A DNA stretch of 64,000 bases from Candidatus Kapaibacterium sp. GTDB taxonomy: Bacteria > Bacteroidota > Ignavibacteria > Kapaibacteriales > UBA7675. Each line of letters starts with the position of its first letter. The first letter of the stretch is position 1. The stretch spans positions 65,342 through 129,341 of the forward strand of contig JANQRB010000044.1 of assembly GCA_028284775.1 (NCBI GenBank), written 5' to 3'. This document shows positions 18,766 through 60,063 of the stretch, piece after piece. A program made the position numbers and the translations under genes. The notes below the pieces were generated by a model. That model ran no database searches. It had not been told where the DNA came from and saw only the letters and a list, made by a program, of their open reading frames with translations.

Positions 18766-18820
18766 CTTTGTTCCGATCACATCGCTTCGCTGTCTGGCCC
18801 GGACGATCGGAACACAGTCA
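18763..18820 (+). other. Long imperfect hairpin spanning the HK1 stop codon (16-bp arms TGACTTTGTTCCGATC / GATCGGAACACAGTCA, 26-nt loop), possible intercistronic terminator/attenuator
   Basis: The arms are reverse complements with one mismatch. No canonical U-run follows. Confidence 0.35.
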
Positions 18821-19143
18821 AAGCCACTCGGCTTTGTCGTCCTTTACATGATCGCATATTGTTAACTGACGAGCTGAAAGAAGACTCCGCCGGCATCGGA
18901 TTTTCTTCCGCGCGCATCGCAGTCGAACGCGGCTATCGCGCAGCGCGTTAAGCCGAGCCCTTAGATGCAGAAAGAAGCAGAATGATAAAACAATAGCCGC
19001 GGCGGCGACACCTCCTGTTTTCCAGAGGCCGGACAAAGGAAAATACGGCGCAAGCAATTCTTAACTGGAATTCATCTCGCATTTGGTCTATTTTTCGGCA
19101 CCACTGCTTTCGCGAAACTGTTCATTACTTGGAGATCTTCCGG

Positions 19144-22383: not shown

Positions 22384-22474
22384 CATTTGCGGTATTCGCT
22401 TCCCCGCACACCGGCAGCCTCCCGGCGCTGCCGGCCGTAATGTACTGCCGCGGCCGACGTCGGTCGCCAAAATC

Positions 22475-22492
22475 AACAGCGTCGCTGTTTTT
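22475..22492 (+). terminator. Weak terminator-like hairpin (AACAGC-GTC-GCTGTT + TTT) downstream of HK2
   Basis: 6-bp stem, 3-nt loop, followed by tttta. Marginal stability; listed only as a possibility. Confidence 0.2.
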
Positions 22493-22683
22493 AGGGTGAT
22501 CTCATCGCTCCAGTCGATGAGTATCCGACCGAAGTGGAGAATCGGATGCTGGAAATCCACCATTGTCCCACAATGAATATTGAGCCTTCGGCCATTCTTC
22601 ATTGTATGGCATCGTCCTTGGACGTAATTTTTCCGTCAACCACTGGAACCTCCGACGCTGATCACAATCAGGAGAAGGACTCG

Positions 22684-44423: not shown

Positions 44424-45812
44424 ATGACGGAATTGCTGCAGGACCTCCAATCGATCGAATTGTTCAGCAAGCTACCGCCGGAACAACTGAAGTGGCTCGT
44501 GGAAAAGTCGGAATTGCGCGGATTTGATGTGGGGGATATCATGTTCAATATCGGCGATCCGATCGACAACATGGGAGTGATCCTGGAGGGAGCATTTGCG
44601 CTTAAATTCAAGCAGGGCGATCAATTCAAGGAGTTCGCGCAATCAGAAAAGGGCAGCATCACCGGCAAGCTGCCATATTCGCGCGCTAAAGTAGCGTCGG
44701 CCCTGGCCGTGGCGATTGAGCCGGCGCGGGTGCTCATTATGCACGAACGCCATCTGCCGGAGATGATCCGCAGTCAGCACGAAATGACCGAAGCCCTGGT
44801 TCACACGATGCTGACGCGCATCCGCGACTTCACTAAGTCGCAGCAGATGAACGAAAAGCTGATGGCTCTCGGCAAACTTTCGGCCGGATTGGCGCACGAG
44901 CTGAATAATCCTTCGTCAGCAGTCGTCCGCAGCGCCGGCGAGCTCAAAAAGCACCTGGCATTGGTACCGGAAAAATTCAAGCGCGTGATTTCCATCCGGC
45001 TGGACAACAGCCAAATCGACATCCTGAACCGGATTTTGTTCAGCAGAGTTCAGCAAGGCATCGCTGAGGGCATGAGCCTGATGGAGCGCAGTGAACGCGA
45101 AGAAGAGCTTACAGACTGGTTGGATGATCATGAGGTTGACAATTCCGACGGCATCGCAGAGACCCTGACGGATTTTGCTTTTAATACCGACGATCTCGAG
45201 GCGATTCGCGAAGCGACAACTGATGAGTATCTCGACGACGCCGTTGCCTGGCTGGAAGACGTCCTCACAACCGAAAAGCTGGTGCAGGAAATTCAAGACG
45301 CCTCGAAACGCATCGCCGACCTTGTAAAATCCGTCAAAACCTACACTCACATGGATCAGGCACCCGACAAACAGAAGATCGACATTCGCAAGGGAATCGA
45401 AAGCACGCTGGTCATGCTGAATCACAAGGCGCGGCGAAAGAACATCACCTTGCAATGCGAGCTGCCGGATGATTTGCCTCTCATCAACGCCTTTCCCAGC
45501 GAGCTGAACCAGGTATGGACCAACCTGATCGACAATGCCATCGATGCGGTGGATCAGGACGGCACCCTTACGCTGCGCGCGCGCCGGGAACGCGAATTCG
45601 TGATGATAGACATCATCGACGATGGCAAGGGTATTCCGGAAGAAATTCAATCACGGATCTTCGAACCGTTTTTCACGACGAAACCGCAGGGACAGGGCAC
45701 CGGCCTGGGGCTCGACATTGTCCAGCGTATCATACAGCATCACAATGCCGATATCAAAGTTGAATCACAGCCGGGAGAGACGAAATTCAAATTGTGCTTT
45801 CCGATGGAGTAG
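44424..45812 (+). CDS. Orphan histidine kinase with N-terminal cyclic-nucleotide-binding (cNMP/CAP-effector) domain
   Basis: ATG 44424 (GGCAGGA 5 nt upstream). cNMP-binding-like N-terminus (FSKLPPEQLKWLVEKSELRGFDVGDIMFNIGDP...). HisKA H-box LSAGLAHELNNPSSAV. HATPase N/G1/G2 boxes (LIDNAIDAV, DDGKGIP, GTGLGLDIV). No adjacent response regulator. Confidence 0.85.
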   Translation: MTELLQDLQSIELFSKLPPEQLKWLVEKSELRGFDVGDIMFNIGDPIDNMGVILEGAFALKFKQGDQFKEFAQSEKGSITGKLPYSRAKVASALAVAIEPARVLIMHERHLPEMIRSQHEMTEALVHTMLTRIRDFTKSQQMNEKLMALGKLSAGLAHELNNPSSAVVRSAGELKKHLALVPEKFKRVISIRLDNSQIDILNRILFSRVQQGIAEGMSLMERSEREEELTDWLDDHEVDNSDGIAETLTDFAFNTDDLEAIREATTDEYLDDAVAWLEDVLTTEKLVQEIQDASKRIADLVKSVKTYTHMDQAPDKQKIDIRKGIESTLVMLNHKARRKNITLQCELPDDLPLINAFPSELNQVWTNLIDNAIDAVDQDGTLTLRARREREFVMIDIIDDGKGIPEEIQSRIFEPFFTTKPQGQGTGLGLDIVQRIIQHHNADIKVESQPGETKFKLCFPME

Positions 45813-47339
45813 GGCAGGTTTTTTTGATTAAGAATTAAGCTTATGCTGCACAGAAGGCAACATCAAAACGCCGGGATCCAGGTGGCATCACGGCCGGAAT
45901 TAACACCTTAATTGTTTTGCTTTTCGATGGGATGATAAGTAGACATGGAGGAGTCCTCCGTCTGCTGTCATACGCGCCACTATAATTGCAGACAAGGGCC
46001 AGAAGAGAAATTTGCAAAATCAGGCTAAAGCAAACTGTAAGGTAAACGGATAGGCTTACGGTCATTCACTATCGAGCGCCGCTCGCCATCGGTAGCATGC
46101 TTGTCGATCCTGATTGACTTCGCGGTGACAGGACGTTAAAGTGACCGTTAGCCTGGTTGAACAGCCCGTTGAGTATTTTTGTCGTATAGCGGATGTTTTC
46201 ACGGCGGTTTGAAGGACAAGTATTTGTATTGTTGTAGCAAATCCGTACGGGGTTTAGCAATCGAGACTGAATGTTTAGTGCAGTGGTGCTGATTAATGGG
46301 TGAGTTGGCGGTGCTGTGGTATGGCTTGGTCTGGCTGCGGATTTCTGGAGGTGGTGGAGGGGAGGCACGCCGCAGGCGAGGTTTATGTGAGGAGATCTGT
46401 TAATTCGACAACTATTATTACGACACTCAGCCTAAAATCCTCAGCCCCTCACAAGTTCACCATCTCACACACCACTCCACCAGACCATCCATACAATCTT
46501 CCCACCCGCCCGTCCTGCGACCAGAAACGTAGCCGCGGTCAATGATCGGCAGCACATTTCTTGTGAAAATGCGTTTAAGACACCGGCGATCAACCATACT
46601 ATCGGCCGACATCGTCAGATCTTCCTACAAGAGCTCCGCAGTGTATACTCCCTAAGCCGGACCTTCCCGCTCAACATTTTACTACTGCTCGGCCAAATAG
46701 AGCGACATAGTTGGACTCATTTGCATAACAACTCTCTCATGAAATGCATCCGACTCATGGCGGATATCGATACGCGGTTCTTCTGCAAAAATAATTTCGC
46801 AGAGGCAGTCCCATGGGCCAAACCCATGTCTCTGCCCCGCAACTCGAATCACCGCAATTCACTGCGGTCAATGTTTTGCGGCCGAACTGTAACACTGACG
46901 CGGCTTCTGTATCATTATGCCGCTTCGAATGCTGGCGACGATGCACTCCAAGAGAATAATCTATGGATCTCCGGTGTCGATTTATGAGTACTTTTGCGGC
47001 AGTGCCCCACTCTCAGGTCGGAGCCGTTCAAACGATTTCCGGCGCTCAATTGGAAGAGGATGCACTCGGAATTTCCGGGACAGCTGCTCCCGCTGATATT
47101 GCCGGTGGAATTCAACGGCAGATAAGTCCGAGACAAATGTGCTACCCGCGATTCAAAACCGCGGCGCTCATCCGGCTGTCGGAAGGAACTGGCAAGGTAG
47201 GGGCAGAACTTGCCGAATCGTTGACAAGAACGACATTCGCAAAATTGTGTTCAAATTCTATGCGTCTGGCGGTAAGCTGATTTGTGACAAAGCCTAATCA
47301 CGAGGGCACCTGCCGCTTTTAGACAATTCTAGGTATGCT

Positions 47340-50300
47340 ATGCGAGGCAAAATTTCGCAATTCCTTCATGCGATGGCCCCTCCGGCCGATACCAAAGGGT
47401 CTACACTCCGACGCTTACCACTCCTGCTGGTCGTTCTGCTTGCCCTCCATCAGCTTCAGGCACAGGAGTTCGTTGCTAATGTAGGCCAATGGCCGGAGCA
47501 GGTTCTCTTCCGCACGCATGCATGTCAGCCGGAGCTTTGGATCACTGAGCAGGGCTTCGTGACCGACCTCCGTAATGAAAAATTGGGGTCAGCCGCTGCA
47601 ATGCACTATTCTTTTGTTGCCGGCAGATTTCAATCCGCAGAAGGACAGCAGCCTCTTCCCGGCCGGTATAATTATCTGCAGGGCGACCGGGTTCGAGGGC
47701 TCAGCCCCCGCTATCGGCGTGTACTCCTGCGAAATGTTTATCCTGACATCGACATGGTCTGGTATTTTGAAGAAGGCAAAGCGCGCTACGATCTTCTTGT
47801 CCATCCGGGCGCCAATCCCTCCTCAATCAGGATGAATATTACCGGCGCAGCGACAGCCGGCGTCACCTTGGCGGGTGATCTGCAGCTTGCCAGCGAAGCC
47901 GGCACTTTGCAGCAGCGCGGATTACGCGCCTATCAGCTTGATGCCAATCGCAATCAGCTGGAAATCAAGTGCTGCTTCAAGATTGATGAGTCCCGCTCGC
48001 CCATAACCGTTGCTTTCGAATGCGGTGATTATGATAAGAAGCGTACGCTTGTCATCGATCCACTGGTGTACAGCAGCTATCTCGGCGGCGCCGATCGCGA
48101 CGAAATATTGGCAATGTCAATCGACAGCCAGGGCTATACTTATGTGGCGGGAGTGACGAACTCGGCGCAATTTCCGACAGTACCCGGCTCCTACGATACC
48201 GATGGTAAAGGTGACCGCTCGGCTTTTGTCAGCAAGCTGAGTCAAGACGGGTCAACGCTGATATGGTCCACCTTTCTCGGCGGCGGCGCGGACGATCAGG
48301 CCAATGCCATTGCTCTGGGTCCTGACAATGATGTTTTTGTCGCCGGAATGACAAAATCGACTGATTTTCCATCGACGGCACGCTTCGGCAGGGAACTGGA
48401 AAGATCCATTGCCTTTGTTGCGCGCTTAAGCGCCGATGGCGGCAGCCTACGCTACGGCGTGCTCTTTGGCGGCGAGAAAGATGATGTGATTAGCGCTGTG
48501 ACAGTTGATCCTTCCGGTAATGCCTATGTAACCGGCAGCACCAGCTCTGATGAGTATTTCCCTCTTCGCAATGCCTTCGACTCAGACTACAACGGCGGCA
48601 TCGATGCCTTTCTCCTGGCACTTAACCCCGCCGGCGATGCCTTGCTTTTTGCGAGTTATCTGGGCGGCAACGGTCACGATGCAGGGCAGGATGTTTCACT
48701 CTCCGCCGAGGGCAGCGTCATCCTTTGCGGAAACACGGAATCGGAAAACTTTCCCGCTACTGTGGGTACCCCGATCAATGATTCTGATGCTTTTCTCGCC
48801 GTTTTCGATCCGGATGGTTCACGCCGCCTTATCCGCCTCTTTGGAGGTGAGAAGGATGATGTCCCGCTTGCACTTATCGAGGGCAAGGACAAGGACATCT
48901 ATGTGGCCGGCTATACCGCTTCCGATGATTTTCCCGTGACGCCGGGCAGCTATGGGCAGAACCCGGTCGGCAAAGACGACGCCTTTGTTGCACGTATTGA
49001 TCGTGCAGGTGAAATCCTATTTGCGCGGCGTTTGGGCGGAATCGAGCGTGACTACGCGACGGCCATCGACCTGGACAAAAGCGGAGGCATCTTCCTAAGC
49101 GGCGCAACGGAATCGTCGTCGTTTCCGATAAGCGATAATGCACCCTGGCCTGATTGGCGGGGCGGGCGAGATGCCTTTGTGGCACATCTGCACCCCGACA
49201 GCAGCGCCCTGCTTTTCGCCACATTTATTGGCGGCAGCGACGACGACGAGGCTGTGGCAGTTGCTGTTGACGACCAGAGCAATATTTATGTCGCCGGCAG
49301 CAGTGAATCCGACGACTTTCCCACAACAGATAATGTCTTGTTGCCGCTTTTTCAGCAAGACCGGGACGGCTTCATCACCAAGTTCAGCATTGACGCCGTC
49401 GCACGACGGCCGCTCTTGCGTGTAAGCGCCGCCGATTTGGATTTTGGCACTGTGTCCCTTGGTGAAAAGCTTGTTGAGCGAGTAGCAATCTCGAATGTTG
49501 GCAATGCACCGGCATTGTTGCAAAAATTGTCATTCAGCGACAATGACGAAAATGCTTTCAGCGATATCTTCGGCAGCGAACTGCCCATCACTATCGAGCC
49601 GGGAACCGAGTACAGCGCTGCTTTTGGCTTTCATCCGCTTTCAGAAGGACCAAAAACAGCTGCGTTGACAATCAGCGGCACTGCGAATCCGATTCTCCTG
49701 CGTCTGAAAGGCAGTGCAACAGAGGATGATGGAAGCAGGGATTCGGCTATTGTGGCCCTACCGGCTCTCGAGGCGGCTTCCGGCGACACGGTCCTTCTGC
49801 CCCTGCGCATACTCCGTATTCCGGCATCTTTCGATCAGCGTTCCGCGACCGGCTTCAGAGCTGAATTTCATTTCAATGCCAGCCTCTTGACACCGCTCGA
49901 CCCGGCACTCCGTGGACAGATAAACGATGGCAGACAGCACATTGTCATCGAAGGCGTTTACCTGGGCGGTTCCTCTAACGATGTGTTAGCAGAGTTGCCG
50001 ATGATCTGCGGCCTCGGGGATGCCGAACAAAGTGAACTGATTCTGGATTGTTCTTCGATACGATGGGAGGTTGACGGCAGTACTATCGATCAGGCCAATG
50101 TATGCCGCGACGGCAGCTTTCGTTTAACTGACATCTGGCGCTTCCGCGAAGATAGGCTGGTTAACAGCAACAAAGGCAACCTGGCACTGGATATACAGCC
50201 CAATCCGGTTGGCGATGCGGCAACAATTCAGGCAAGGATTTCCTCAGCGCCGGCTCACCTGCGGCTGCACGATGCGCTCGGTCGGCCCCTCATCGACCTG

Positions 50301-50432
50301 AGTGACAGACTGCCGGCAGCGGCTGGAAACCTTCGTTTCACTTTCGTAACTGCCGGCCTGGCCTCCGGCACATATTATCTGCGACTGACCTCCGGAACTT
50401 TTGTCCTGCTACGAGTTATGCAGGTTAAATAG
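47340..50432 (+). CDS. SBBP beta-propeller repeat protein (DUF7948-like N-terminus) with T9SS C-terminal sorting domain
   Basis: ATG 47340. Signal ...LRRLPLLLVVLLALHQLQAQ. SBBP-type repeats (DIYVAGYTASDDFPVTPGSY; NAYVTGSTSSDEYFPLRNAF; NIYVAGSSESDDFPTTDN...). C-terminus LDIQPNPVGDAATIQARIS...GTYYLRLTSGTFVLLRVMQVK matches the T9SS CTD. Confidence 0.85.
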   Translation: MRGKISQFLHAMAPPADTKGSTLRRLPLLLVVLLALHQLQAQEFVANVGQWPEQVLFRTHACQPELWITEQGFVTDLRNEKLGSAAAMHYSFVAGRFQSAEGQQPLPGRYNYLQGDRVRGLSPRYRRVLLRNVYPDIDMVWYFEEGKARYDLLVHPGANPSSIRMNITGAATAGVTLAGDLQLASEAGTLQQRGLRAYQLDANRNQLEIKCCFKIDESRSPITVAFECGDYDKKRTLVIDPLVYSSYLGGADRDEILAMSIDSQGYTYVAGVTNSAQFPTVPGSYDTDGKGDRSAFVSKLSQDGSTLIWSTFLGGGADDQANAIALGPDNDVFVAGMTKSTDFPSTARFGRELERSIAFVARLSADGGSLRYGVLFGGEKDDVISAVTVDPSGNAYVTGSTSSDEYFPLRNAFDSDYNGGIDAFLLALNPAGDALLFASYLGGNGHDAGQDVSLSAEGSVILCGNTESENFPATVGTPINDSDAFLAVFDPDGSRRLIRLFGGEKDDVPLALIEGKDKDIYVAGYTASDDFPVTPGSYGQNPVGKDDAFVARIDRAGEILFARRLGGIERDYATAIDLDKSGGIFLSGATESSSFPISDNAPWPDWRGGRDAFVAHLHPDSSALLFATFIGGSDDDEAVAVAVDDQSNIYVAGSSESDDFPTTDNVLLPLFQQDRDGFITKFSIDAVARRPLLRVSAADLDFGTVSLGEKLVERVAISNVGNAPALLQKLSFSDNDENAFSDIFGSELPITIEPGTEYSAAFGFHPLSEGPKTAALTISGTANPILLRLKGSATEDDGSRDSAIVALPALEAASGDTVLLPLRILRIPASFDQRSATGFRAEFHFNASLLTPLDPALRGQINDGRQHIVIEGVYLGGSSNDVLAELPMICGLGDAEQSELILDCSSIRWEVDGSTIDQANVCRDGSFRLTDIWRFREDRLVNSNKGNLALDIQPNPVGDAATIQARISSAPAHLRLHDALGRPLIDLSDRLPAAAGNLRFTFVTAGLASGTYYLRLTSGTFVLLRVMQVK

Positions 50433-51322
50433 CGGCATTGCATTAATGGCATACGGCGAAGTCCTATCACGCCAAGCGTCATGAATTTGAATTGATGCCA
50501 AGAACAGGCAGCGGTGAATCACCGTTTCATTATCATCAGAATGAACGAAATATCGTTGACAGCGGTACAATGAAGATTGTGGCGGTCTTTAACAATCTTG
50601 CCGCACTTCCATTCCTGAACCGTGTTCTTCACAATGTCGTCGGATCACTGTTTTCAAACCGACCTGCTTTGTTAAAGTCAGAGATCATTCGAAAGAGTTT
50701 ATCTTCTAGCAGTGGCAAATCGGTTTTTTTGTTGTTTCCAGCTTGTTAAGCTCCTTCTTCCCAACAATGTCGATTAACAGCACAAGTCTCGCCAATGTCG
50801 GAGCAGGCAGCAATATAGCCATTCTCTAGGTCGGCAGCAGCATAGTCGTGTTTGAAGCAAGGGCCTTCCGGTCGATATCAGCGGCTGCGCCACGGCATGT
50901 CCCGTCGCACATGGCCTTATAAGCTTCCATAGAATCAGCTATGAACTGCGGACGCCAAGCATCCTGAGCTTGAGGCCCGAGTTAAATTCTGCCGACGGGC
51001 ATCGACAAGGTGACCTCGTCACTTTAGAAAGGTACATTTGCCCCGGCTTTAGGGAATTTTGCAATCGAAGGGAAAGGCGACAGGCGGGCAGTCAGGGAGG
51101 TAAGAACATCATTATCAGCTTAACTCTTAGTGGTGCTTGCGGCGGCATCTACATCCAATCCTAGCTTAAGATCGTCGTTCGACGTCGCCGGCGTTCTATC
51201 CGATGGAATGCTGCGGATTCACTATCGACGGTCGTAGAAAAACTTAAAAGTAAGGGCCTCTTGATCATCGCCGGACCAGCCGCTCTTCGGCCGGAGAACA
51301 TAAGTGTACGAGTTGTTTCCCT

Positions 51323-51859
51323 TCAGCTGGCGGGAAAGCGAATTGTCAGCTCCTCCCGTCCGGCGGCATAACTCGCAGGATAACGACGCAGATCGCTCGT
51401 TACCAGTGGCGAATCGCGCCAGCCGCCGTCGCTGGAAGAGAATTCAGCCCCGTGGCATGGGCATATCATATTGGCGCCGGGTTCGGCCGGCAAATTTACT
51501 TCACAAACCTGGTGCGTACAAAGGGCGGTGACGACCAGAAATTCGCTTTCACTCTTCCGGATGATAATCAATCGCCGGCCGTCGTTAAAGGGTGGTATTG
51601 CGATTTTGATTGCACCGCCAACCGATCCTAGTGCCGGATAGTCACTCAGGAGCAGCGTCGCAGCAGCATCCGGCTGAAGGGCATCGCCGGTAGATGGCCC
51701 GACGATCTTAACGACACGCGGTTCACACGAAGACAGGAGCTGGCCGAGCGCTCCACTGCAACATGCAGTACAGCAAAGCGTTCCTGCGCTGCGCAGAAAC
51801 TCCCGTCGTTGCTGCCTGCGTCTTGCTTGTACCTTTTTCGATTTAGCATTCGTTTGCAT
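51323..51859 (-). CDS. Rieske [2Fe-2S] domain protein with twin-arginine (Tat) signal
   Basis: ATG 51859 with GGAG SD 8 nt upstream. Tat-type motif RRRQQRREFLRSAGTL. Rieske cluster ligands CTHQVCEV ... CPCHGAEF (CxH...CxxH). Confidence 0.85.
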   Translation of the reverse strand: MQTNAKSKKVQARRRQQRREFLRSAGTLCCTACCSGALGQLLSSCEPRVVKIVGPSTGDALQPDAAATLLLSDYPALGSVGGAIKIAIPPFNDGRRLIIIRKSESEFLVVTALCTHQVCEVNLPAEPGANMICPCHGAEFSSSDGGWRDSPLVTSDLRRYPASYAAGREELTIRFPAS

Positions 51860-52115
51860 CGCCTGACTCCGGAACCGTTAAACACTTATTCGCCCGATAA
51901 CTCTGCTCAGCAAGGGTGATACATTTACGGGACGAATGTTACAGGCACACGCTGCAAGTCTCGTCCCTGCCTGAATGTTCGCCTTTTCCCAACGACGGGA
52001 TGTAATGAAGGCGGTCTTCAAAATACCGAGTCGGTCCAGACCCTTAACGCTTGTCGGCAAGTGCAGCAATCATATTTTTTGCAACGAAGATTGCAGTTTG
52101 AGTATTTTTGGTTCT

Positions 52116-54266
52116 ATGTGTCCAAGGTTAAGCACCGCCGTCCTCAGCTGCATCTTTCTTACTTTCAACCTGCTTGACGCCGCCGGCACCGACAGCAGCG
52201 CCCTTTCCTGGCGATACAGCCTGAGCGCTGCCCTGAGCTACAGCAGCCACTCGCCCGCGTTCGGGACTTTCGTGGACGAAGGCATCGAGCTGCCCGCAGA
52301 AGCAGGGATCTTCGATTCGGGCGATGATACGGGCCTCGGTCTATTCTTCGATGGCGCCGCTCAGCTGCATGACCGCCTCTGGCTGGGCTTGGCGCTTGAC
52401 TTTCGCAATGCCGACGGCGACATAAGTACGACCGAAGAAAAGACCTATATCATCCAGGGTGTGCCCACCAGTGGTGTTAACAATCACACTGTCTCATTTA
52501 CAATCCGTTCACTCGGCCTGACGCCCAGTCTGAGTTATGATTTACCCGGCAGCTTGTACCTGCGTGCCGGTCTGCGTCTGGCCTTTGTTATCGACGCTCC
52601 CTTCACACAACGTGAAACGATTCAATCACCGGAGGGGCTTGAATTCCCCAACGGCAGTTCACGACGCGTGCTGAGCGAGGCATCCGCCGGTTTTGATGAT
52701 GTTCAGATTCCCGGCGTCGCCGCTTTGCTGGGGCTGGGTGTTCATCTGCCGCTTAATGAAGCTGGCTCCTTGGGCCTACGGGGGGAGATGCACTATCAGA
52801 CCGATCTGACGAGTATCACCCACGATGTTGAATGGAAGGCTGCCACGCTGGCCCTGGCTTTGGGTATCACAATAACGCCGACTACCTCCATACCTGTCCT
52901 GCGCGACACCATCATCATGCGTGATACTATAATCGACAGGCGCGCCGACATCGAAACGGAGATAACACGGCTGGAAGAGCGAAACAGCAGCACCGAACGT
53001 AAGACGAGCGCCGAGCACATCCGCGAGACCCTGCGCATCACGGAACGCTATCGGCGCAGCGAGCCGAAAAAACCGCCGCTGCTCCTGCCTTCACTGAAGC
53101 TTCGCTTTGCGCTGCCTGATGGTAGTGAAGCGGAAGCGGTAGCCTTGCAGATTCGCCGCCGCCGGGAGAAATTTCGCGCACCGCTGCTGCCATACATCTT
53201 TTTCGCGGAAGGTTCCGATAGCCTGCCACAGCGGTATCGCTCCCAGGGAACCGCCTCGCCCGATGAATTCACCGAGTCTGATCTGGATAGGGTATCGCTG
53301 CCGGGCATGTACCGGGAGCTGCTGAACATCGTTGGCAGTCGATTGCGTCAACGCCCCGGAGCTACCCTCGTCATAACGGGTTGCAATGACGGCGGCCTTT
53401 CTGAAGCAGGCGACAGCGCTTTGTCGCAAAGGCGGGCGGCAGCAGTCCGTGACTTTTTGCGGGATCACTGGCAGATCAACCCCGAGCGCATGCCGCTCCG
53501 GTCGCGCCTGCTGCCGGAACGAGCTTCCTCCTTGCGCCATGCCAGCGGACGCGCCGAAAACCGTCGCGCCGAGCTCAGCTCTGATGATTCCGCCATCCTG
53601 GCTCCGGTTCGTCTGCAGCTAACGAGCTTCGAAGCGAATCCACCCGAGCTTCTATTGTACCCGGAGGTACTGACTACATCACTGTTGAGCCATTGGTCGA
53701 TTGCAGTGACCGCGGGCGATGCGTCGACGCGTCTGATACAACGCTGGGAAGGTGTCGGCAGCTTACCCCCGCTCCTGCGCTGGTCGATCGCTGAGGACAG
53801 CAGCGCCATGCGGCTTGTCCAGGGTGAGGAGCGCATGCAAAGCTTTCTCACGGTACAGGATACAGCGGGTTTCATCGCCATTAGTGACACGGGCAGCATT
53901 CGCTTTCGCCATTCGCAGCGCGACGTCGCGGCGGACGTCGAATTACGGGAGCGCTATTCGCTCCTGTTTTTTGGCTTCGACGATGCGGACCTCAGAACCG
54001 ACCAGCAGGATTATCTGCAAAGCATTCGGCCGGCGTTGCTGCAGGCAGACAGCATAGTAATCAGCGGTACGACGGACAACAGCGGCAGTGTATCTTACAA
54101 TCGGGCTCTTGCTCTGCAACGCGCAGAGAATGTCGCCGACTTGCTCGGTCTGCCGTCCTCGATACCGGTCAGCATCAAGGCGGCAAACGGCAGTCTGTCC
54201 AATGAGCTGCCTGAGGGACGCTGCTATAATCGCAGTGTGAGTATCCTGGTCGACCGAGGCGACTGA
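52116..54266 (+). CDS. Outer-membrane protein with two C-terminal OmpA-like domains
   Basis: Start tentatively at ATG 52116 (MCPRLSTAVLSCIFLTFNLLDAAG, signal-like). The track start 51975 adds 47 residues without a signal peptide. Two OmpA_C-like segments (GRAENRRAELS ; NRALALQRAENVADLL...GRCYNRSVSILV). Confidence 0.7.
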   Translation: MCPRLSTAVLSCIFLTFNLLDAAGTDSSALSWRYSLSAALSYSSHSPAFGTFVDEGIELPAEAGIFDSGDDTGLGLFFDGAAQLHDRLWLGLALDFRNADGDISTTEEKTYIIQGVPTSGVNNHTVSFTIRSLGLTPSLSYDLPGSLYLRAGLRLAFVIDAPFTQRETIQSPEGLEFPNGSSRRVLSEASAGFDDVQIPGVAALLGLGVHLPLNEAGSLGLRGEMHYQTDLTSITHDVEWKAATLALALGITITPTTSIPVLRDTIIMRDTIIDRRADIETEITRLEERNSSTERKTSAEHIRETLRITERYRRSEPKKPPLLLPSLKLRFALPDGSEAEAVALQIRRRREKFRAPLLPYIFFAEGSDSLPQRYRSQGTASPDEFTESDLDRVSLPGMYRELLNIVGSRLRQRPGATLVITGCNDGGLSEAGDSALSQRRAAAVRDFLRDHWQINPERMPLRSRLLPERASSLRHASGRAENRRAELSSDDSAILAPVRLQLTSFEANPPELLLYPEVLTTSLLSHWSIAVTAGDASTRLIQRWEGVGSLPPLLRWSIAEDSSAMRLVQGEERMQSFLTVQDTAGFIAISDTGSIRFRHSQRDVAADVELRERYSLLFFGFDDADLRTDQQDYLQSIRPALLQADSIVISGTTDNSGSVSYNRALALQRAENVADLLGLPSSIPVSIKAANGSLSNELPEGRCYNRSVSILVDRGD

Positions 54267-54276
54267 TTGTCAAGGC

Positions 54277-55272
54277 TCAATCTTTAAGATGCTGCAGTCG
54301 TGCGATCCAGTATTGTTCTTTGTCGCTGCCGGCGGCACGCAGGGCAGCCAGAGACCGCGACTTCAGTTGCAGCGCATCGGCCCGACGACCTTCCTGACCG
54401 GCGCCGAATGCCAATTCTCCCAATAGCTCGCCCTGTAGCTCCCGCCATTGGCCTGATTCCGCCAAAGCAAGCGCGCGTTTCAGTATGCTGCGACTGCTAT
54501 CCGGGTGGCCGAGCTGACGGTGAGCAACGCCAATCTGGCGCAGGCTGCGAACCCGATCCGCCGAGCCGGGCGGCGGCAGGTGCTCCCAGAGACCTAGAAT
54601 GACTTCTTCGATCTTCTGCGCTTTCGCTCCACCGCTTTCCACAAAGCCGTGCATTCGCTGTGATGCGTCGGAGGCCGATTTTGGCACTGTGTTTGCGTTG
54701 CGGGAACTGTCTGTTTGCGCCGCTTCTGCATCCGAAGGCGTCGGTACGTCGGGGATCTGACGCTCCGGCTCGACGGCTGACGGGCTGGGGGCCGGTACCG
54801 CCGCGGGCTGCGAATGTGAAATCGCCTCATCGACGGACTCCGTTTGATGGAAAGAACTGAAATTCTCCGACGGTGTCGCGGTCTGGTCATCACGCGTGGC
54901 GACCGGAAGAGGCGTCTTCTCCGTTGGAGCCGGCAGGACGTCACCAGCGGCGCCGGTATCATCGCCGGGTGCGAGCCATAGCAGCGAGCTGAGAATTATC
55001 ACACCCGCGCCGGCAAACCACAGCCAGAGCGGAGGCCGCCGCCGCTGGATCTGCAGTGCTGCCCGAATGCTTTCTTTAGTCGCAGCGCGATAATCAAGGG
55101 CGCGCGCGTCGCGGGACTGCTGTTCCGCCGTCAGGATTGTTTCCAGTCGCTGAAGGTCATGCAGTTCCTCAGCCAGAGAGCTGTCGTGCATCAGCAAGGC
55201 ATCGAGCTCGGCCTGCTCGGCGGGACTGAGGCTGCCGTCCAAAGCTTTAGCGATTAATTCATCATGTCTCAT
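54277..55272 (-). CDS. Membrane-anchored anti-sigma factor (putative), single TM, periplasmic C-terminal helical domain
   Basis: ATGA start/stop overlap with the upstream ECF sigma gene (55269-55272). N-terminus MRHDELIAKALDGSLSPAEQAELDALL resembles an anti-sigma N-domain. TM helix LWLWFAGAGVIILSSLLWLA. Pro/Ala-rich linker, then a helical C-terminus. Confidence 0.6.
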   Translation of the reverse strand: MRHDELIAKALDGSLSPAEQAELDALLMHDSSLAEELHDLQRLETILTAEQQSRDARALDYRAATKESIRAALQIQRRRPPLWLWFAGAGVIILSSLLWLAPGDDTGAAGDVLPAPTEKTPLPVATRDDQTATPSENFSSFHQTESVDEAISHSQPAAVPAPSPSAVEPERQIPDVPTPSDAEAAQTDSSRNANTVPKSASDASQRMHGFVESGGAKAQKIEEVILGLWEHLPPPGSADRVRSLRQIGVAHRQLGHPDSSRSILKRALALAESGQWRELQGELLGELAFGAGQEGRRADALQLKSRSLAALRAAGSDKEQYWIARLQHLKD

Positions 55273-55826
55273 TCTTCATCTGATAAATAGGGTTGCAGAC
55301 TTGTACGAAGCATTTTCTTGGCGCGATGGATGCGCACTTTCACGAGCGCCATCGAAATATCGAGCCGCTGCGCTATTTCGTGATAGGCAAAGCCATCCCT
55401 GTATTTTAACTCGAAAGCAGCGCGGAACTCCTCCGGGAGTGCGGCGATCGCTTTGTTCAAAGCTTCAGCGAAAAAAATATCCTTATCCGGTCCTCTCTCC
55501 GGAGCCGCGAGTGCATAGCCCGCGTCATCGATGTCGGTCGTCTGCAATTGGTTGCGTACCGACAGCAGACAGTTGTTCCGCGCGATGGTAAACATCCAGC
55601 CGGCAAAGTTGCCTCCCTTGAATTGTTCCGCTTTCTGAAACACCGTCATCAAGGTCGATTGATAGATATCTTCGGCAACCTGCCGGTTCTTCGTCGCTGC
55701 CAGACAGTAGGCATACAACCGCCGATCATAACGCCGGTACAACTCGTCGAAAGCAGCCTCATCCCTCTGTTGTATAAGGGTCAGGAGCGCTTCGTCTGTC
55801 TGACACTGGTACGCCGCTTTGTTCAT
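55269..55826 (-). CDS. ECF-subfamily RNA polymerase sigma-70 factor
   Basis: 185 aa. Region-2-like YRRYDRRLYAYCLAATKNRQVAEDIYQSTLMTVF and a region-4 HTH near the C-terminus (FAYHEIAQRLDISMALVKVRIHRAKKMLR). Confidence 0.85.
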   Translation of the reverse strand: MNKAAYQCQTDEALLTLIQQRDEAAFDELYRRYDRRLYAYCLAATKNRQVAEDIYQSTLMTVFQKAEQFKGGNFAGWMFTIARNNCLLSVRNQLQTTDIDDAGYALAAPERGPDKDIFFAEALNKAIAALPEEFRAAFELKYRDGFAYHEIAQRLDISMALVKVRIHRAKKMLRTSLQPYLSDEE

Positions 55827-55894
55827 TCTTCGCAGTCCGTTTCATTGCTTCGGGGGCAGGAATACACAATATCGGCAATTGTTACAAGGGTATT

Positions 55895-56069
55895 CTTGTG
55901 GATTGAGATTATTTAGGATTGGTCGGGGGTGGTTTGTGGGGCGACCACGGGGGACACGGAGGCACGGGGGACACTTCAGTTGGCGGGCTCTTGTGGATGG
56001 AGATTATTCAGGATTGGTCGGAGGTGGTTTGTGGGGCGACCACGGGGGACACGGAGGCACGGGGGACAT
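55895..56069 (+). repeat. Tandem direct repeat: two ~80-bp G-tract-rich units with 95-bp period in the sigma/heme-cluster divergent intergenic region
   Basis: Unit 1 is 55895-55974 (cttgtggattgagattatttaggattggtcgggggtggtttgtggggcgaccacgggggacacggaggcacgggggacac). Unit 2 is 55990-56069, differing at ~4 positions, with a 15-bp spacer. Each unit has G5/G4/G5/G5 tracts. GGATTGG occurs in each unit and again at ~56141. Confidence 0.9.
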
Positions 56070-56273
56070 TTTAGCGGCTGCGGCTTTGGGTGAAGATGGC
56101 GGTTGCCTGTTAAGAAAAATGGGCGGGACTGTAACAATCGGATTGGATTTACATTCCTGGCGCAAGTTTTATTATTGCTTCGGCGGAATTAACAAATAGC
56201 ATCGCGTGGAGTATTGTGAAGGGTGCTATGTCGGCGGCGGCAATTTTTTCGGATTATTCGGATGCAAAGTTGT

Positions 56274-57518
56274 ATGATTAAACAACAGACCATCAAGGCG
56301 CTGGCATTAAGTCTGGCGATCGTGCTCCTGCCGCACTGCAGTTCAGACGAGGACGGCGGTAGTCCGAGCTCTCCTTCCCTGGAAGATGCCGTGATAATTG
56401 ATCCCGCGGATGCTGCGATCGCGATAGGTGAGCAGCTTCAACTACAGGCCCGGCATGCAGGCGCAGCGGTTGAAGTTCATTGGAAGGTGGCGCAAGGGCC
56501 GGGCAGCATCGACGACAGCGGCGTCTACAGCGCGCCCGCGAGCCTGACGGTTCGTTCGGTAACCGCCACCATTCGGGCCACGATGCAGCGTGACGAGTCG
56601 ATTCGCGGCTTTGCGCAGATTGTCGTCAGCACTAACGAACCCGACCCAAATGACGATCCCGGTACAACGGTCTCCCTGGCAGTACAGCCTGAGTCGGCCG
56701 CGCTCAATCTTAACGAAGAGCTGCAGTGCCAGGCATTTTTCAACGGCCAGCCTGCAAGCGGCGTTTCCTGGGCAGTGACGGAAGGGCCCGGAACGGTCGA
56801 TGCCAATGGACTCTACCGCGCGCCATCCTCAATTGACGCGTCAAAGCTGCGCGCCCTCATCGAGGTCCGTAGCGCGGGATCGCCGCCACTCACGCGCAGC
56901 GTAGAAGTTCAAGTATACAACTACATGCCCGGCACGGTCTGTTTTCAGCGCGACGTGATGCCGATGCTCTTGTCGAACTGCGCTATGAGCGGCTGTCACG
57001 ACGCCAAGACACATGCCGATGGCATAGACCTCTCCAGTTATGAAGCGATGATGCGCTCGCATGAAACGGTACGGCCGTACAATGCGGGAGACAGTGAACT
57101 CTACGAGTCGATCACCGACTTCGGCGATGACGACCTGATGCCGCCGCCGCCCCGCGATCCGTTGTCAAAAGAGCAGATTGCACTGGTCCGACGCTGGATC
57201 AATGAAGGCGCCCCGGACTCGGATTGCGCTCCGCCGGACGGCAGCAACTGCGATACGGTCGATGTCGGCTTCCGTTCTACCATTCAGCCTCTGATGCAAA
57301 GCTATTGCGTCGGCTGCCACAGCAATGCCGCGCCGGCAGACAATCTTGCTCTGGAAAGCTACGAACAGGTCCGCAACTCAGCTCGCGATGGCGGCCTCCT
57401 GGGATCGATCGTCCACGATCCGGCTTACAAAGCCATGCCGTCAAAGGATCTGAAGCTGAACGACTGCCAGATCAAACAGATCCGGGTCTGGATTGCTGCC
57501 GGTACACCGGATAACTAA
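56274..57518 (+). CDS. Lipoprotein with two Ig-like (Big_2-type) domains and two PSCyt1-type (Planctomycete cytochrome c) c-heme-binding modules
   Basis: Start tentatively at ATG 56274 (MIKQQTIKALALSLAIVLLPHCSS); the track start is GTG 56223. Module 1 is FQRDVMPMLLSNCAMSGCHDAK...LMPPPP...WINEGAP (C-x4-CH). Module 2 is FRSTIQPLMQSYCVGCHSNAAP...AMPS...WIAAGTP (canonical CxxCH). Both follow the PSCyt1 pattern F..V.P.L...C..CH...MPP...WI..G. Confidence 0.75.
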   Translation: MIKQQTIKALALSLAIVLLPHCSSDEDGGSPSSPSLEDAVIIDPADAAIAIGEQLQLQARHAGAAVEVHWKVAQGPGSIDDSGVYSAPASLTVRSVTATIRATMQRDESIRGFAQIVVSTNEPDPNDDPGTTVSLAVQPESAALNLNEELQCQAFFNGQPASGVSWAVTEGPGTVDANGLYRAPSSIDASKLRALIEVRSAGSPPLTRSVEVQVYNYMPGTVCFQRDVMPMLLSNCAMSGCHDAKTHADGIDLSSYEAMMRSHETVRPYNAGDSELYESITDFGDDDLMPPPPRDPLSKEQIALVRRWINEGAPDSDCAPPDGSNCDTVDVGFRSTIQPLMQSYCVGCHSNAAPADNLALESYEQVRNSARDGGLLGSIVHDPAYKAMPSKDLKLNDCQIKQIRVWIAAGTPDN

Positions 57519-57753
57519 ATCCTGTCCGCTTCCGCAAGAAGATAATCTCTCTTCGTTTGTCCGTTCCCCCCGACACTTCTTTGCCCGGGCAAAGAATGGC
57601 GTCGGGGGTCGTTTTTTCGGCAATAATTGGCCGGAAGAAAAAATTCATTCCCAGATTGGTCGGGATTGATGAACTTTGCGGTCAGAAAGACCTCCGGCAA
57701 GGACTAGTGCTCAATCGTTCAGTACTATTCACCAGAAAGGAGAAGTTGCGACC

Positions 57754-58281
57754 GTGAAATCCAACAAAGCAGGCAACTGGAGACGATGGATACTTTGGGG
57801 ACTGCTGGCGCTCGTCATTGTCATTCAGCTGATTCCGGTGGAACGCGGTAATCCGCCCGTTGAAACGACCATCGGTGCACCCGAGGCCGTAATGGCTATT
57901 CTGCGCAGCGCCTGTTACGACTGTCATTCCAATGAATCGCATTGGCCCTGGTACAGTTATGTTGCGCCTGTTTCCTGGCTTATTGCGCACGATGTGGAGG
58001 AAGGCCGCGAGCATCTCAACTTTTCGACCTGGAACCGATTCAGCGACAAAGACCGCGTTGAGCTGCGCGAGGAGATATGGGAGGAAGTCGAAGAGGGCGA
58101 AATGCCGCTCGCAATTTATTTGCCATTGCACCCCGAAGCCGAGCTGAGTGAGAGCCAGAAAGCCACGTTACGCAGTTGGGCTCTCGGCAGCGCACACAGT
58201 GGCAACCGGGACGCGCGTCTGGAGCCGAGCCAGGCCCGCAGCGGCGAGGAGCATCAAGACGCAAGCCATGAAACACATTAA
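57754..58281 (+). CDS. Membrane-anchored Haem_bd (PF14376-like) heme-binding domain protein
   Basis: GTG 57754 with AAAGGAGAAG SD ~8 nt upstream (the track ORF starts at TTG 57676). N-terminal TM WRRWILWGLLALVIVIQLIPV. CYDCHSNESHWPWYSYVAPVSWLIAHDVEEGREHLNFSTW matches the Haem_bd signature, including CxxCH. Confidence 0.7.
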   Translation: MKSNKAGNWRRWILWGLLALVIVIQLIPVERGNPPVETTIGAPEAVMAILRSACYDCHSNESHWPWYSYVAPVSWLIAHDVEEGREHLNFSTWNRFSDKDRVELREEIWEEVEEGEMPLAIYLPLHPEAELSESQKATLRSWALGSAHSGNRDARLEPSQARSGEEHQDASHETH

Positions 58282-58401
58282 AAAACACTAGACTTTCGGA
58301 AGGCTTAAGGCCGTTCGGCCCAGGGCCCCTACGGCAAGCTCGAAGATCGTGTTTACCGGTCGCGAAAGGACCGGCATAATTTTCAGGAAAGGATTGTAAC
58401 G

Positions 58402-60063
58402 ATGAAAAAGCCGCTGATAGTTGCACTTGACGACGACCCGCAGGTGCTCAGAGCGATCCGACGCGATCTACGCAATGAATACCGCGAAGAGTATCGCATA
58501 CTTTCCACGACCTCGGCGCGGGAAGCATTGGAGTCCTTGAAAGAGTTGAAGCTGCGTGGCGAGAAAATCGCGCTTTTCATTTCCGACCAGCGGATGCCAG
58601 AAATGGAGGGCGTCGACTATCTGGAGCGGGCCAAGGAGATTTTCCCCGAGGCGCGGCGCGTGCTCCTGACGGCATATTCCGATACGGAAGCGGCCATTAA
58701 AGCGATCAATGACGTGCAGCTCGACTACTATCTGATGAAACCCTGGGATCCGCCGGAAGAAAAATTGTACCCTGTGCTGAACGACCTGCTCGACGAATGG
58801 CAGGCGAGCTACCGGCCGGACTTCGAAGGCATCAAAATCGTAGGCTATCAGTGGTCGCCGCGCTCGCATGGCATTAAGGACTTTCTGGCGGGCAACCTGA
58901 TTCCTTACCTTTGGCTGGATATCGAATCGAATGAGGAAGCACGCCGCTTGATCGACGCTGCCGGCGTGGCGCATAAAGAGTTGCCGGCGGTGTTTTTCGA
59001 GGACGGCAGCCACATGGAGAATCCCACAGCAACCCGGATCGCCGCAAAAATTGGCATGAATGCCCACGCTTCCGACACGATGTACGACGTCGTGATTGTT
59101 GGCGCCGGCCCGGCGGGTCTGGCTGCGGCCGTTTATGGCGCATCGGAAGGCCTCAAAACGCTGCTGGTGGAAAAGCGGGCGCCGGGCGGGCAGGCGGGCA
59201 CAAGTTCGCGCATCGAAAATTACCTCGGCTTCCCGAAAGGTCTGAGCGGCTCGCAGCTCACGCAACGCGCCATCACCCAGGCCACTCGACTGGGGGCGGA
59301 GTTCCTGCTGCCGCAGGAAGTCAAAAGCATCAGCCTGCGCGATAAATACAAAATCATTACACTCGCCGACGGTGCTGAGATCCACGCGCTCAGCGTCATC
59401 ACGACTACAGGCGTGGACTACCGCAAGCTCGCGACCAAGGGCATTGCTGATTTCACCGGGGCGGGCGTTTATTACGGCGCGGCGACGACGGAGGCGGCAG
59501 CCTGCCGCGATAAGGACGTCTATATCGTCGGCGGCGGCAACTCGGCCGGACAGGCTGCCATGTATCTCTCGACATTCGCCAGCAATGTCTACATTCTTAT
59601 CCGCCGCGACTCGTTGAAACACTCGATGTCGCAGTACCTTATAGACCAGATTGCCGGCACAGCCAATATCGTGCTGCAGCCGCATACGGTGGTAGAAGAA
59701 GCTATCGGCAACGGCAACCTGAGCGCCCTGGTGCTGAAAGACCTGAATAGCAATGAATGCCGCAGGGTAGAGGCGGGCTCGCTCTTCATCTTTATCGGCG
59801 CACGCCCCTATACCGAGTGGCTGGAAGCCGATATCATCAAGAATCAGCGCGGCTTTATCGAAACTGGACGCGACCTGATCCGGCATCCGGACTTTAAGAA
59901 AGTCTGGAAACTCGATCGCGAGCCTTTCCTGCTGGAATCGAGCTCGCCCGGCCTCTTTGCCGCCGGCGACGTGCGCGCCGGCGCCATGAACCGCGTCGCT
60001 TCGGCCGTCGGCGAAGGATCGATGGCCATCAAATTTGTCCACGAGTACCTGGCTCAGCTCTGA
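58402..60063 (+). CDS. Response-regulator receiver (REC) domain fused to a thioredoxin-reductase-fold FAD/NAD(P)H flavoprotein that lacks the CxxC redox centre
   Basis: ATG 58402 with AAAGGA SD. REC has LDDD (res 9-12), phosphoacceptor Asp in FISDQRMPEMEG, T in VLLTAY and K in YYLMKPW. The C-terminal ~330 aa have TrxB-like Rossmann motifs (VVIVGAGPAGLAAAVY ; YIVGGGNSAGQAAMYL). TrxB 'CATC' aligns to AATTEAAAC, so there is no CxxC. Confidence 0.85.
   Translation: MKKPLIVALDDDPQVLRAIRRDLRNEYREEYRILSTTSAREALESLKELKLRGEKIALFISDQRMPEMEGVDYLERAKEIFPEARRVLLTAYSDTEAAIKAINDVQLDYYLMKPWDPPEEKLYPVLNDLLDEWQASYRPDFEGIKIVGYQWSPRSHGIKDFLAGNLIPYLWLDIESNEEARRLIDAAGVAHKELPAVFFEDGSHMENPTATRIAAKIGMNAHASDTMYDVVIVGAGPAGLAAAVYGASEGLKTLLVEKRAPGGQAGTSSRIENYLGFPKGLSGSQLTQRAITQATRLGAEFLLPQEVKSISLRDKYKIITLADGAEIHALSVITTTGVDYRKLATKGIADFTGAGVYYGAATTEAAACRDKDVYIVGGGNSAGQAAMYLSTFASNVYILIRRDSLKHSMSQYLIDQIAGTANIVLQPHTVVEEAIGNGNLSALVLKDLNSNECRRVEAGSLFIFIGARPYTEWLEADIIKNQRGFIETGRDLIRHPDFKKVWKLDREPFLLESSSPGLFAAGDVRAGAMNRVASAVGEGSMAIKFVHEYLAQL

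Follow-up and report, generated by a model that had tools for sequence, protein, structure and literature searches.

A 1.5-kb non-coding spacer, probably ordinary intergenic DNA or a leftover of rearrangement, beside a histidine kinase gene separated from its usual partner

The locus lies in a stretch of 64 kb, referred to here as the window, which is the whole of the DNA analysed. A 1.5-kb spacer separates two genes that point in the same direction, as the initial annotation had described them: a histidine kinase gene on its left and a gene for a secreted DUF7948/SBBP/ASH-Ig protein (hereafter SBBP) on its right (Table 1). The SBBP gene begins with an ATG that is not preceded by a Shine-Dalgarno sequence. 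Its other flank is likewise an empty spacer, of 890 bp, and no spacer in the window is as long as the one described here, the runners-up measuring 890 and 759 bp. The lower GC content that had been ascribed to the spacer is real in comparison with coding sequence (0.564), but its value is a usual one for intergenic DNA: the other intergenic stretches of the window lie between 0.43 and 0.58, so that the lower GC is normal for such DNA and does not mark it as foreign.

Table 1. Features of the spacer and its surroundings, in positions of the window.
Feature	Position	Strand	Description
Histidine kinase (HK) gene, upstream flank	44424-45812	+	cNMP-binding, HisKA and HATPase domains (Pfam)
Non-coding spacer	45813-47339	.	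1527 bp, GC 0.498; left edge of the 12.6-kb block 45813-58401
Weaker long hairpin	46015-46160	+	on an imperfect inverted repeat; dG -49 kcal/mol, z -2.8
G-rich segment	46141-46400	+	highest GC skew of the window (+0.50)
Contig overlap	46349-46374	.	26-nt overlap of two otherwise identical Logan contigs (run SRR20820731); assembly break inside the G-rich run
C-rich segment	46401-46680	+	lowest GC skew of the window (-0.43); pairing with the G-rich segment at chance level
Stop-free stretch, 183 codons	46436-46984	+	first canonical start codon at 46721; GC1/2/3 0.54/0.44/0.54
51-aa ORF	46457-46612	-	in the NCBI annotation of the source genome; singleton; hexamer score +0.10 on just 52 codons
Hairpin cluster	46700-46935	.	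~230 nt, perfect palindromes; fold z (see text); single copy found
Hairpin H1	46706-46759		
Closing stem	46774-46780/46884-46890		encloses H2, H3 and H4
Hairpin H2	46782-46803		
Hairpin H3	46804-46836		
Hairpin H4	46837-46881		
Hairpin H5	46900-46923		
105-aa ORF	46963-47280	+	in the gene calls for a Logan contig only; singleton; hexamer score -0.23
SBBP gene, downstream flank	47340-50432	+	secreted DUF7948/SBBP/ASH-Ig protein, 1030 aa
Displaced kinase partner	58402-60063	+	553 aa; Response_reg and Pyr_redox_2 domains

The spacer had been described as free of ORFs, which holds in the sense that it contains no credible gene, but small ORFs have been called in it: the 51-aa ORF in the NCBI annotation, and both this and the 105-aa ORF, which is the longest with an ATG, GTG or TTG start, on Logan contig L002. 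Hexamer coding scores were flat or negative in all six frames of the spacer. With held-out training, real genes scored +0.07 to +0.37, apart from the Rieske gene at -0.07, while the ORFs of the spacer scored -0.05 to -0.37, the exception being the 51-aa ORF, which is too short for its positive score to be judged. Protein homology was assayed with profile libraries and with a protein search using the 183-aa stretch. Six-frame searches of the spacer against Pfam, PHROGs and NCBIfam gave no domains, and at E<=1 Pfam and NCBIfam returned just two chance matches (E 0.1-0.2); as a positive control, the six-frame profile search recovered the Rieske domain from an X-masked frame. Reading TGA, TAG or TAA as sense did not bring out a long gene either. 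The blastn comparison with related genomes that it had proposed found no similarity to the spacer in 29 fetched loci, and the same was true of tblastx and of both searches against the rest of the window.

That the 51-aa ORF or the 105-aa ORF is a real small protein is very improbable. Both were called on the Logan contig, the shorter one is also in the NCBI annotation, and its hexamer score is slightly positive; against this, both ORFs form singleton clusters among ~15 billion proteins, a domain search of both was empty, and the score of the 105-aa ORF is clearly on the non-coding side. The 51-aa ORF moreover sits on the G-rich strand of the C-rich run, where composition alone may lift the coding score.

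It may be asked whether the 183-codon stop-free stretch is the relic of a recently decayed plus-strand gene without known relatives, or of one that lost its start, perhaps continuing by frameshift into a 106-codon stretch at 46960-47277. Shuffled sequence seldom gives a run of this length (P=0.012 for global shuffling, 0.013 for shuffling in 100-nt blocks, 0.022 on repetition), the GC content of the stretch over the three codon positions is a damped version of the shape of real genes (0.60/0.44/0.64), and the two open stretches share 46960-46984 and jointly end 60 nt 5' of the SBBP start. I nevertheless consider a decayed gene rather unlikely: a search of 1.84 billion representative proteins with the 183-codon stretch gave 0 matches at E<=1e-3, the profile libraries gave no domains, and the hexamer scores of the two stretches (-0.16 and -0.23) fall below the range of the held-out genes. 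Its first 95 codons contain no canonical start codon, and its first 100 nt are C-rich, a composition that disfavours stop codons. It is also unlike the products of the genes that neighbour the kinase in relatives: with these as queries, tblastn into the spacer gave nothing better than E about 0.1, and a remnant of the Rieske gene, the 560-aa ASH gene or the 553-aa regulator/oxidoreductase gene was rejected for want of a tblastn signal. A decayed gene and the explanation favoured below overlap in that both take the spacer as leftover DNA.

The switch from a G-rich to a C-rich strand turned out to be both real and extreme. Measured as GC skew in 200-nt windows, the two extremes of the entire 64 kb neighbour each other in the spacer, at 46201 and 46401, and each lies ~5 sd out (sd of the window 0.093). 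The two runs had also been described as partly complementary, and here the description did not hold up, as the two share no inverted repeat better than 16 nt at 81% and there is no meaningful hairpin. The 281-nt segment 46260-46540 folds like its dinucleotide shuffles (z -0.02 on the plus and -0.58 on the minus strand), so the complementarity is purely compositional, and with a fold z about 0 on both strands a G-rich/C-rich hairpin was ruled out. The adjoining runs amount to a quirk of composition, or possibly to decayed low-complexity sequence. Similarity between the spacer and the window's other G-rich spacer (55827-56222) was at the level of shuffles.

Two special functions that might go with such a sequence were tried and rejected. 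An origin of replication was defined as a cluster of TTATCCACA-like DnaA boxes within non-coding DNA where the skew switches; the window holds 6 such boxes (<=1 mismatch) where 8.5 are expected, none of them in the spacer, and the skew switch is local (~500 bp) and of the wrong sign for an origin. An inverton, which would call for near-perfect inverted repeats around a promoter segment and a site-specific recombinase close by, was rejected as well: the best candidate repeats are 13 nt with 1 mismatch (46579-91/46966-78), about chance level, and the neighbouring genes that were scanned encode no recombinase domain.

The skew switch raises the question of whether the spacer, or the switch itself, is an assembly artefact, i.e. 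a false join of contigs at 46349-46374. An independent Logan assembly, 100% identical to the window, breaks at just this place, with a 26-nt overlap at the switch. The two Logan contigs, however, overlap and agree with the window, and the SBBP-like, Rieske and OmpA-like genes on the right of the break also neighbour the kinase in the related locus L023-25, so that synteny supports the adjacency seen in the window. The same Logan contig also ends in another G-rich repeat, at 55957, which is more in line with trouble from coverage or k-mers in G-rich DNA than with a chimera. An artefact is hardly credible on these grounds.

Strong secondary structure was found in a separate part of the spacer, the hairpin cluster at 46700-46935. 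In 150-nt windows it reached z -4.6 to -5.3 on the plus strand and down to -6.15 on the minus strand, and over 251 nt it scored -3.4 and -3.6, respectively, with 0 of 200 shuffles folding as well on either strand; on the minus strand the centroid is near the MFE structure. Together, its closing stem and three hairpins make up a 117-nt four-way junction. Scores of z<-4.5 occur in just 0.47% of the strand-windows of the 64 kb, which puts the cluster in the top 0.5%. The suggestion that the spacer might be an sRNA locus thus fared in two ways: the G-rich/C-rich pair that had been pointed to is unstructured, and this other segment is significantly structured. A weaker long hairpin (46015-46160; Table 1) was chosen after viewing the list of repeats and is unexceptional against background.

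Could the cluster, then, be a structured RNA not described before (from either strand) or an element acting in cis as RNA or DNA, for example an sRNA, a leader element lying far upstream of the SBBP gene or an array of protein-binding palindromes? The z values, the shuffles, the junction and the rarity of such scores all argue for it, but several observations make it improbable. In an Rfam scan, a check that had been proposed at the outset, none of 4227 families matched the spacer at gathering score or even at E<=10; between 45600 and 47600 the sole match at E<=10 was a 19-bit chance one inside the kinase gene. The scan was able to detect a known RNA, namely the window's SAM riboswitch (13255-13377), which was its sole match in the whole window at gathering scores. 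This riboswitch has a z of only about -2 to -3, and z therefore does not discriminate functional RNAs. The stems of the cluster are GC-rich perfect palindromes without G-U asymmetry, so nothing in them points to a strand or to selection at the RNA level. A single-sequence covariance model of the hairpin core, run on the window and 23 loci, found no further copy. Several comparable outliers with a terminator-like look occur at gene 3' ends: the other strong fold-z outliers are mostly at or near such ends (windows 32501, 41601 and 54101), and a further one is a 23-bp hairpin 3' of the stop at 4655. The stronger form of the idea, in which the cluster would be a novel non-coding RNA with a defined structure, or a novel cis-regulatory one, in the long region upstream of the SBBP gene and specific to a poorly sampled Bacteroidota-related lineage, appears slightly more doubtful still.

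In comparison with known systems, the spacer resembles Rfam structured RNAs in being intergenic, upstream of a gene and in having one significantly structured sub-segment, but differs from them in the empty Rfam scan. A tRNA or rRNA had been denied for the spacer, correctly so, as ARAGORN found 0 tRNA or tmRNA genes in the window and Rfam none in the spacer; the four-way-junction shape of 46774-46890 did not yield a cloverleaf with ARAGORN. The run of GC-rich perfect palindromes is reminiscent of intrinsic terminators and of REP or BIME elements, and the stem at 46851-46868 is terminator-like. Unlike a terminator, however, the cluster lacks a clear T-tract, and the closest stop codon upstream is ~900 nt away. 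Many dispersed copies are what defines a REP element, whereas the cluster is without a second copy in the 64 kb or in related loci.

Searches of the spacer for a promoter or a canonical terminator identified none. There are 4 sigma-70-like sites where 1.7 are expected and 1 terminator-like site where 2.2 are expected, the latter being the stem just mentioned. The Bacteroidota-type -7 box TAnnTTTG occurs 3 times against ~0.5 expected, but none of these is near the SBBP start and the excess is not interpretable. A long structured leader of the SBBP gene, another of the options first considered, found no support, since the 400 nt 5' of the start codon fold like shuffles (47000-47345, fold z between -1.4 and +1.9). 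In L027-29, an SBBP homologue of the same domain composition is preceded by a short spacer of 178 bp, and the gene for the 820-aa protein of L023, which is 35% identical to the C-terminal part of SBBP over a 786-aa alignment, by one of 27 bp; all homologues of SBBP are <=39% identical and too distant for a fair comparison.

The remaining option offered at the outset was a decayed mobile element or phage remnant. Nothing of that kind was found, although the wider idea of leftover DNA fits the break in synteny described below. The spacer had no blastn match in 72,556 plasmid and 50,697 phage records, no match to PHROGs in six frames and no transposase remnant (Pfam and NCBIfam, six frames) at E<=1 apart from the two chance matches. 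Terminal inverted repeats and target-site duplications were checked at 45813 and 47339, and none pairs the two boundaries; the best inverted repeats of the spacer (13-26 nt) are internal and at chance level. The spacer has no second copy within the window or the related loci. It is like an IS, MITE or prophage remnant in being an ORF-poor, lower-GC stretch between intact genes, but unlike one in lacking terminal repeats, a target-site duplication, any trace of a transposase, integrase or phage protein, and a DNA match.

A gene for a 553-aa regulator/oxidoreductase directly follows the kinase gene in 14 of 17 distinct related loci. Its counterpart in the window is 60-69% identical to these full-length partners and 70-77% identical to partial copies in L030 and L031, but begins only after a gap of 12.6 kb (45813-58401), and the spacer is accordingly the left edge of a lineage-specific block. 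The genes of this block encode the secreted SBBP protein, a Rieske protein, an OmpA-like protein, an ECF sigma factor, and cytochrome and haem-binding proteins; an uncharacterised gene beside the ECF sigma gene possibly encodes an anti-sigma factor. No repeats are common to the two ends of the block.

L023-25 is the only relative found with shared neighbouring genes. As in the window, its kinase is accompanied by Rieske, 820-aa ASH/T9SS and OmpA-like proteins, with the Rieske gene on the minus strand 10 bp after the kinase gene. No spacer there exceeds 185 bp, and the 1.5-kb spacer is missing from this nearest relative. No close relative turned up in public collections: the best kinase homologues in the protein database are 57% identical, and a search for close relatives gave at best 58% (partial match) or 52% (full length) in the genome collection and 49% in the metagenome collection. 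In clusters at 90% identity the SBBP protein is a singleton, and the cluster of the kinase adds just fragments of 41-57 aa.

With no coding signal, no homology, no extra folding of the G-rich/C-rich pair, a split gene pair at the locus and absence from the nearest relative, the spacer is probably an ordinary spacer or a leftover of rearrangement, and I regard it as reasonably likely that 45813-47339 is truly non-coding and was left behind when the genome was rearranged. In most relatives the kinase gene and the 553-aa response-regulator/FAD-oxidoreductase gene sit side by side in the same direction. In this lineage the block of 12.6 kb has come between the two, with the spacer as its left end, the spacer presumably being debris from that event. 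No dedicated element is recognisable in the spacer, and its present role would be that of any long intergenic region. It may serve to end or insulate transcription leaving the kinase gene, possibly at the hairpin cluster; most other strongly structured windows examined lie at gene 3' ends. The promoter and 5' leader of SBBP would also be expected to lie in the spacer.

The spacer is like a rearrangement scar in that it has neither coding signal nor homology, has intergenic-type GC content, lies exactly at the split gene pair and is missing in L023-25. It differs from a simple scar in being the longest spacer of the window and in carrying an extreme pair of GC skews and a significant hairpin cluster. 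In bacteria, 1.5 kb of function-less DNA is unusual, as deletion bias removes such DNA. Against the leftover-DNA reading, the persistence of the spacer hints at a recent origin or at a function, and the 183-codon run or the hairpin cluster could mark something more specific than a plain spacer. Only if one of these two were functional would there be a new RNA or gene to describe. If the rearrangement explanation is true, its significance is small, in that a long gap with a striking G-rich/C-rich pair can be a plain spacer. As a by-product, the analysis brought out a two-gene signalling unit, consisting of a cNMP-binding kinase and a receiver-domain FAD oxidoreductase, that is kept in most of the related loci examined and is parted here by 12.6 kb of envelope and secretion genes.

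Among 17 distinct loci that carry a homologue of the cNMP-binding kinase ending just upstream of the spacer 45813-47339, 14 have a 553-aa Response_reg + Pyr_redox_2 gene as the next gene, 10-140 bp away on the same strand. These loci come from Cytophagales, Chitinophagales-like genomes, Hymenobacter, Mucilaginibacter, and unclassified MAGs. The partner gene is also intact here (58402-60063, 60-69% identity to full-length relatives) and on the same strand as the kinase, 12.6 kb downstream of it. The intervening block opens with the spacer, then the SBBP gene and a second, empty spacer of 890 bp. Next come a Rieske gene (-), an OmpA-like protein and two (-) genes sharing a few bases, first a 331-aa uncharacterised gene and then an ECF sigma gene; a spacer with a G-rich tandem repeat, cytochrome c, and a haem-binding protein complete it. 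The kinase and its partner are thus set apart by envelope, secretion and redox genes. The best-supported reading is that the spacer is non-coding DNA left at a rearrangement breakpoint, which is considered probable. Features of the window are listed in the table.

Features of the window (hairpins of the spacer are predicted folds)
Feature	Position	Strand	Details
23-bp perfect hairpin	4490-4660	-	directly after the stop of a 1644-aa gene, 4655-9589 (-); z -6.9 (scan), -4.5 (200 shuffles)
SAM riboswitch RF00162	13255-13377	-	71 bits; upstream of Cys/Met-metabolism PLP enzyme gene 11882-13072 (-)
HK, 462 aa	44424-45812	+	cNMP-binding + HisKA + HATPase_c domains; upstream flank
54-nt hairpin	46706-46759		predicted fold
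Closing stem	46774-80/46884-90		encloses three hairpins; predicted fold
Three enclosed hairpins	46782-46803, 46804-46836, 46837-46881		predicted fold
Further hairpin	46900-46923		predicted fold
Secreted protein, 1030 aa	47340-50432	+	DUF7948 + SBBP repeats + ASH/Cep192-type Ig domain; downstream flank
Second long ORF-free spacer, 890 bp	50433-51322		GC 0.49; far side of SBBP gene, between convergent genes
G-rich tandem repeat	55894-56068		period 95 nt, 1.8 copies, 96% matches; in spacer 55827-56222, between ECF sigma gene (-) and cytochrome c gene (+)

Part of the block arrangement was found, in a different order, in one relative represented by GCA_964445695.1 and two runs of Logan, an independent assembly of sequencing runs. 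Downstream of its kinase (56% identical), a gap of 10 bp leads to a double-Rieske gene (-), after which come 560-aa and then 820-aa ASH/T9SS proteins, DUF1905, and an OmpA-like protein. Of the two ASH/T9SS proteins, the 820-aa one shows 35% identity to the C-terminal part of the SBBP protein over a 786-aa alignment. Because this relative shares the gene set beside the kinase, the adjacency is real and old, and the comparison indicates that gene order has been reshuffled since it arose. None of the relative's spacers exceeds 185 bp, and the long spacers flanking the SBBP gene are a peculiarity of the present genome. Spacer 45813-47339 retains nothing recognisable of the Rieske, 560-aa or regulator genes; neither blastn nor tblastx matched it to other parts of the window or to the loci fetched, and it has no repeat in common with the far end of the block. 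The second long spacer held a Pfam domain in no frame.

The collections searched contained no close relative. In species-representative genomes the kinase's top matches share 58% (partial) and 52% (full-length) identity with it; the best figure is 49% for JGI metagenome contigs and 57% for a set of 5.8 billion proteins. In 90%-identity clusters, the SBBP protein and both spacer ORFs were singletons, while the kinase was joined by just short 41-57-aa fragments; the source is a 174,718-bp NCBI genome contig together with one Logan run. Run SRR20820731 yields two Logan contigs that match the window at 100% identity; one ends at 46374 and the next begins at 46349, giving a 26-nt overlap within the G-rich run, where the skew switches. 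The other end of the second contig, at 55957, falls inside the G-rich tandem repeat of spacer 55827-56222, and the breaks are taken to reflect trouble with coverage or k-mers in G-rich DNA. Synteny with the relative argues against a chimeric join at 46349-46374, and it is very improbable that the spacer is an assembly artefact.

The initial annotation had described the interval, which is bounded on both sides by + strand genes, as free of ORFs, and this was confirmed as far as credible genes are concerned. The longest conventional ORF measures 105 aa, and reading one or other stop codon as sense, as under an alternative genetic code, still yielded no long ORF. A dicodon model trained on long genes of the window gave +0.4 to +0.9 per hexamer for both flanking genes and at most about +0.2 within the spacer in all six frames. 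Rerun with held-out genes and a stop-codon-free background, it scored real genes at +0.07 to +0.37, except for one Rieske gene at -0.07, and spacer ORFs and open stretches at -0.05 to -0.37. A 51-aa ORF reached +0.10, from 52 codons only, and it is very improbable that the spacer encodes real small proteins.

A recently decayed gene lacking known relatives would be compatible with the breakpoint reading and is unlikely, though the least unlikely of the alternatives. A stop-free run of 183 codons (46436-46984, +) was matched in length in only 1.2% (global), 1.3% (100-nt blocks) and 2.2% (repeat) of shuffled spacers, and in GC1/2/3 (0.54/0.44/0.54) it follows the gene pattern 0.60/0.44/0.64 in damped form. 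Its first 95 codons contain no canonical start, its hexamer score is negative, and a search of 1.84 billion representative proteins gave no match at E<=1e-3. Open stretches concatenated with X spacers gave no match among 5.8 billion proteins, but this query missed two spacer ORFs present in that collection and was not counted: an ordinary single-protein query does return its own self-match, so negatives from composite queries are not to be trusted.

The absence of a tRNA signature noted in the initial annotation was borne out, and no tmRNA was found either. At gathering score, the SAM riboswitch was the sole Rfam match in the whole window, and at E<=10 the region 45600-47600 returned only a 19-bit chance match inside the kinase gene. 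A mobile or phage remnant had also been suggested and found no support: blastn against plasmid and phage collections gave no match, six-frame translations held no Pfam, PHROGs or NCBIfam domain at E<=1 (two chance matches at E 0.1-0.2), and neither terminal inverted repeats nor duplications mark the spacer boundaries. As a positive control, the X-masked translation method recovered the adjacent Rieske domain at E 8e-9. The spacer contains no DnaA boxes.

The spacer is the longest intergenic region of the window, ahead of 890 bp (50433-51322) and 759 bp. It does have a lower GC than coding DNA (0.498 vs 0.564), but lies within the 0.43-0.58 of the remaining intergenic regions, so its composition is normal for intergenic DNA and not that of a foreign island. 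The G-rich to C-rich switch proved to be real and far from chance: against a mean GC skew of 0.00 (sd 0.093, 200-nt windows across 64 kb), the window-wide maximum (+0.50 at 46201) adjoins the minimum (-0.43 at 46401), both inside the spacer. The initial annotation was largely right in its description, but not in the complementarity it suggested. The best inverted repeat that joins one run to the other measures 16 nt (81%), and segment 46260-46540 (281 nt) folds at -90.2 (+) and -91.3 (-) kcal/mol, compared with means of -90.1 and -88.4 for dinucleotide shuffles (z -0.02 and -0.58). Pairing between the runs is explained by composition alone. Spacer 55827-56222 has the second-highest GC skew of the window (+0.48); it shows no similarity to spacer 45813-47339 above shuffles, its tandem repeat does not significantly resemble the G-rich run 46300-46380, and no other spacer in the window is strongly G-skewed.

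A sliding fold scan of the spacer (150-nt windows, both strands) picked out strong structure around 46700-46935, with z of -4.6 to -5.3 (+) and down to -6.15 (-). Over 251 nt, z was -3.4 and -3.6, and 0 of 200 shuffles folded as well. It is rather improbable that this segment is a new structured RNA or a new cis element. Of all strand-windows in the 64 kb, 0.47% have z<-4.5; the known SAM riboswitch gets no further than -2 to -3, so functional RNAs do not stand out by fold z. Because the main stems are perfect palindromes, they form equally well on both strands and do not indicate which one might be transcribed. When the core (46772-46892) was searched for with a covariance model, neither the window nor 23 loci yielded another copy. 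No discrete functional element is demonstrable in the spacer; the DNA and its skew pattern are themselves real. As breakpoint DNA, the spacer would now do no more than keep two unrelated transcription units apart. Its hairpin cluster may terminate or insulate transcription, and the promoter of the SBBP gene would be expected somewhere in the last few hundred bases.

The other strong structure outliers of the window, including 32501, 33901, 41601 and 54101, lie mostly at or near gene 3' ends and lack long T-tracts. Elsewhere in the window, three tandem paralogous genes of ~1100 aa each (15520-25899, +) carry Reg_prop beta-propeller, Y_Y_Y and His_kinase (LytS-type) domains.
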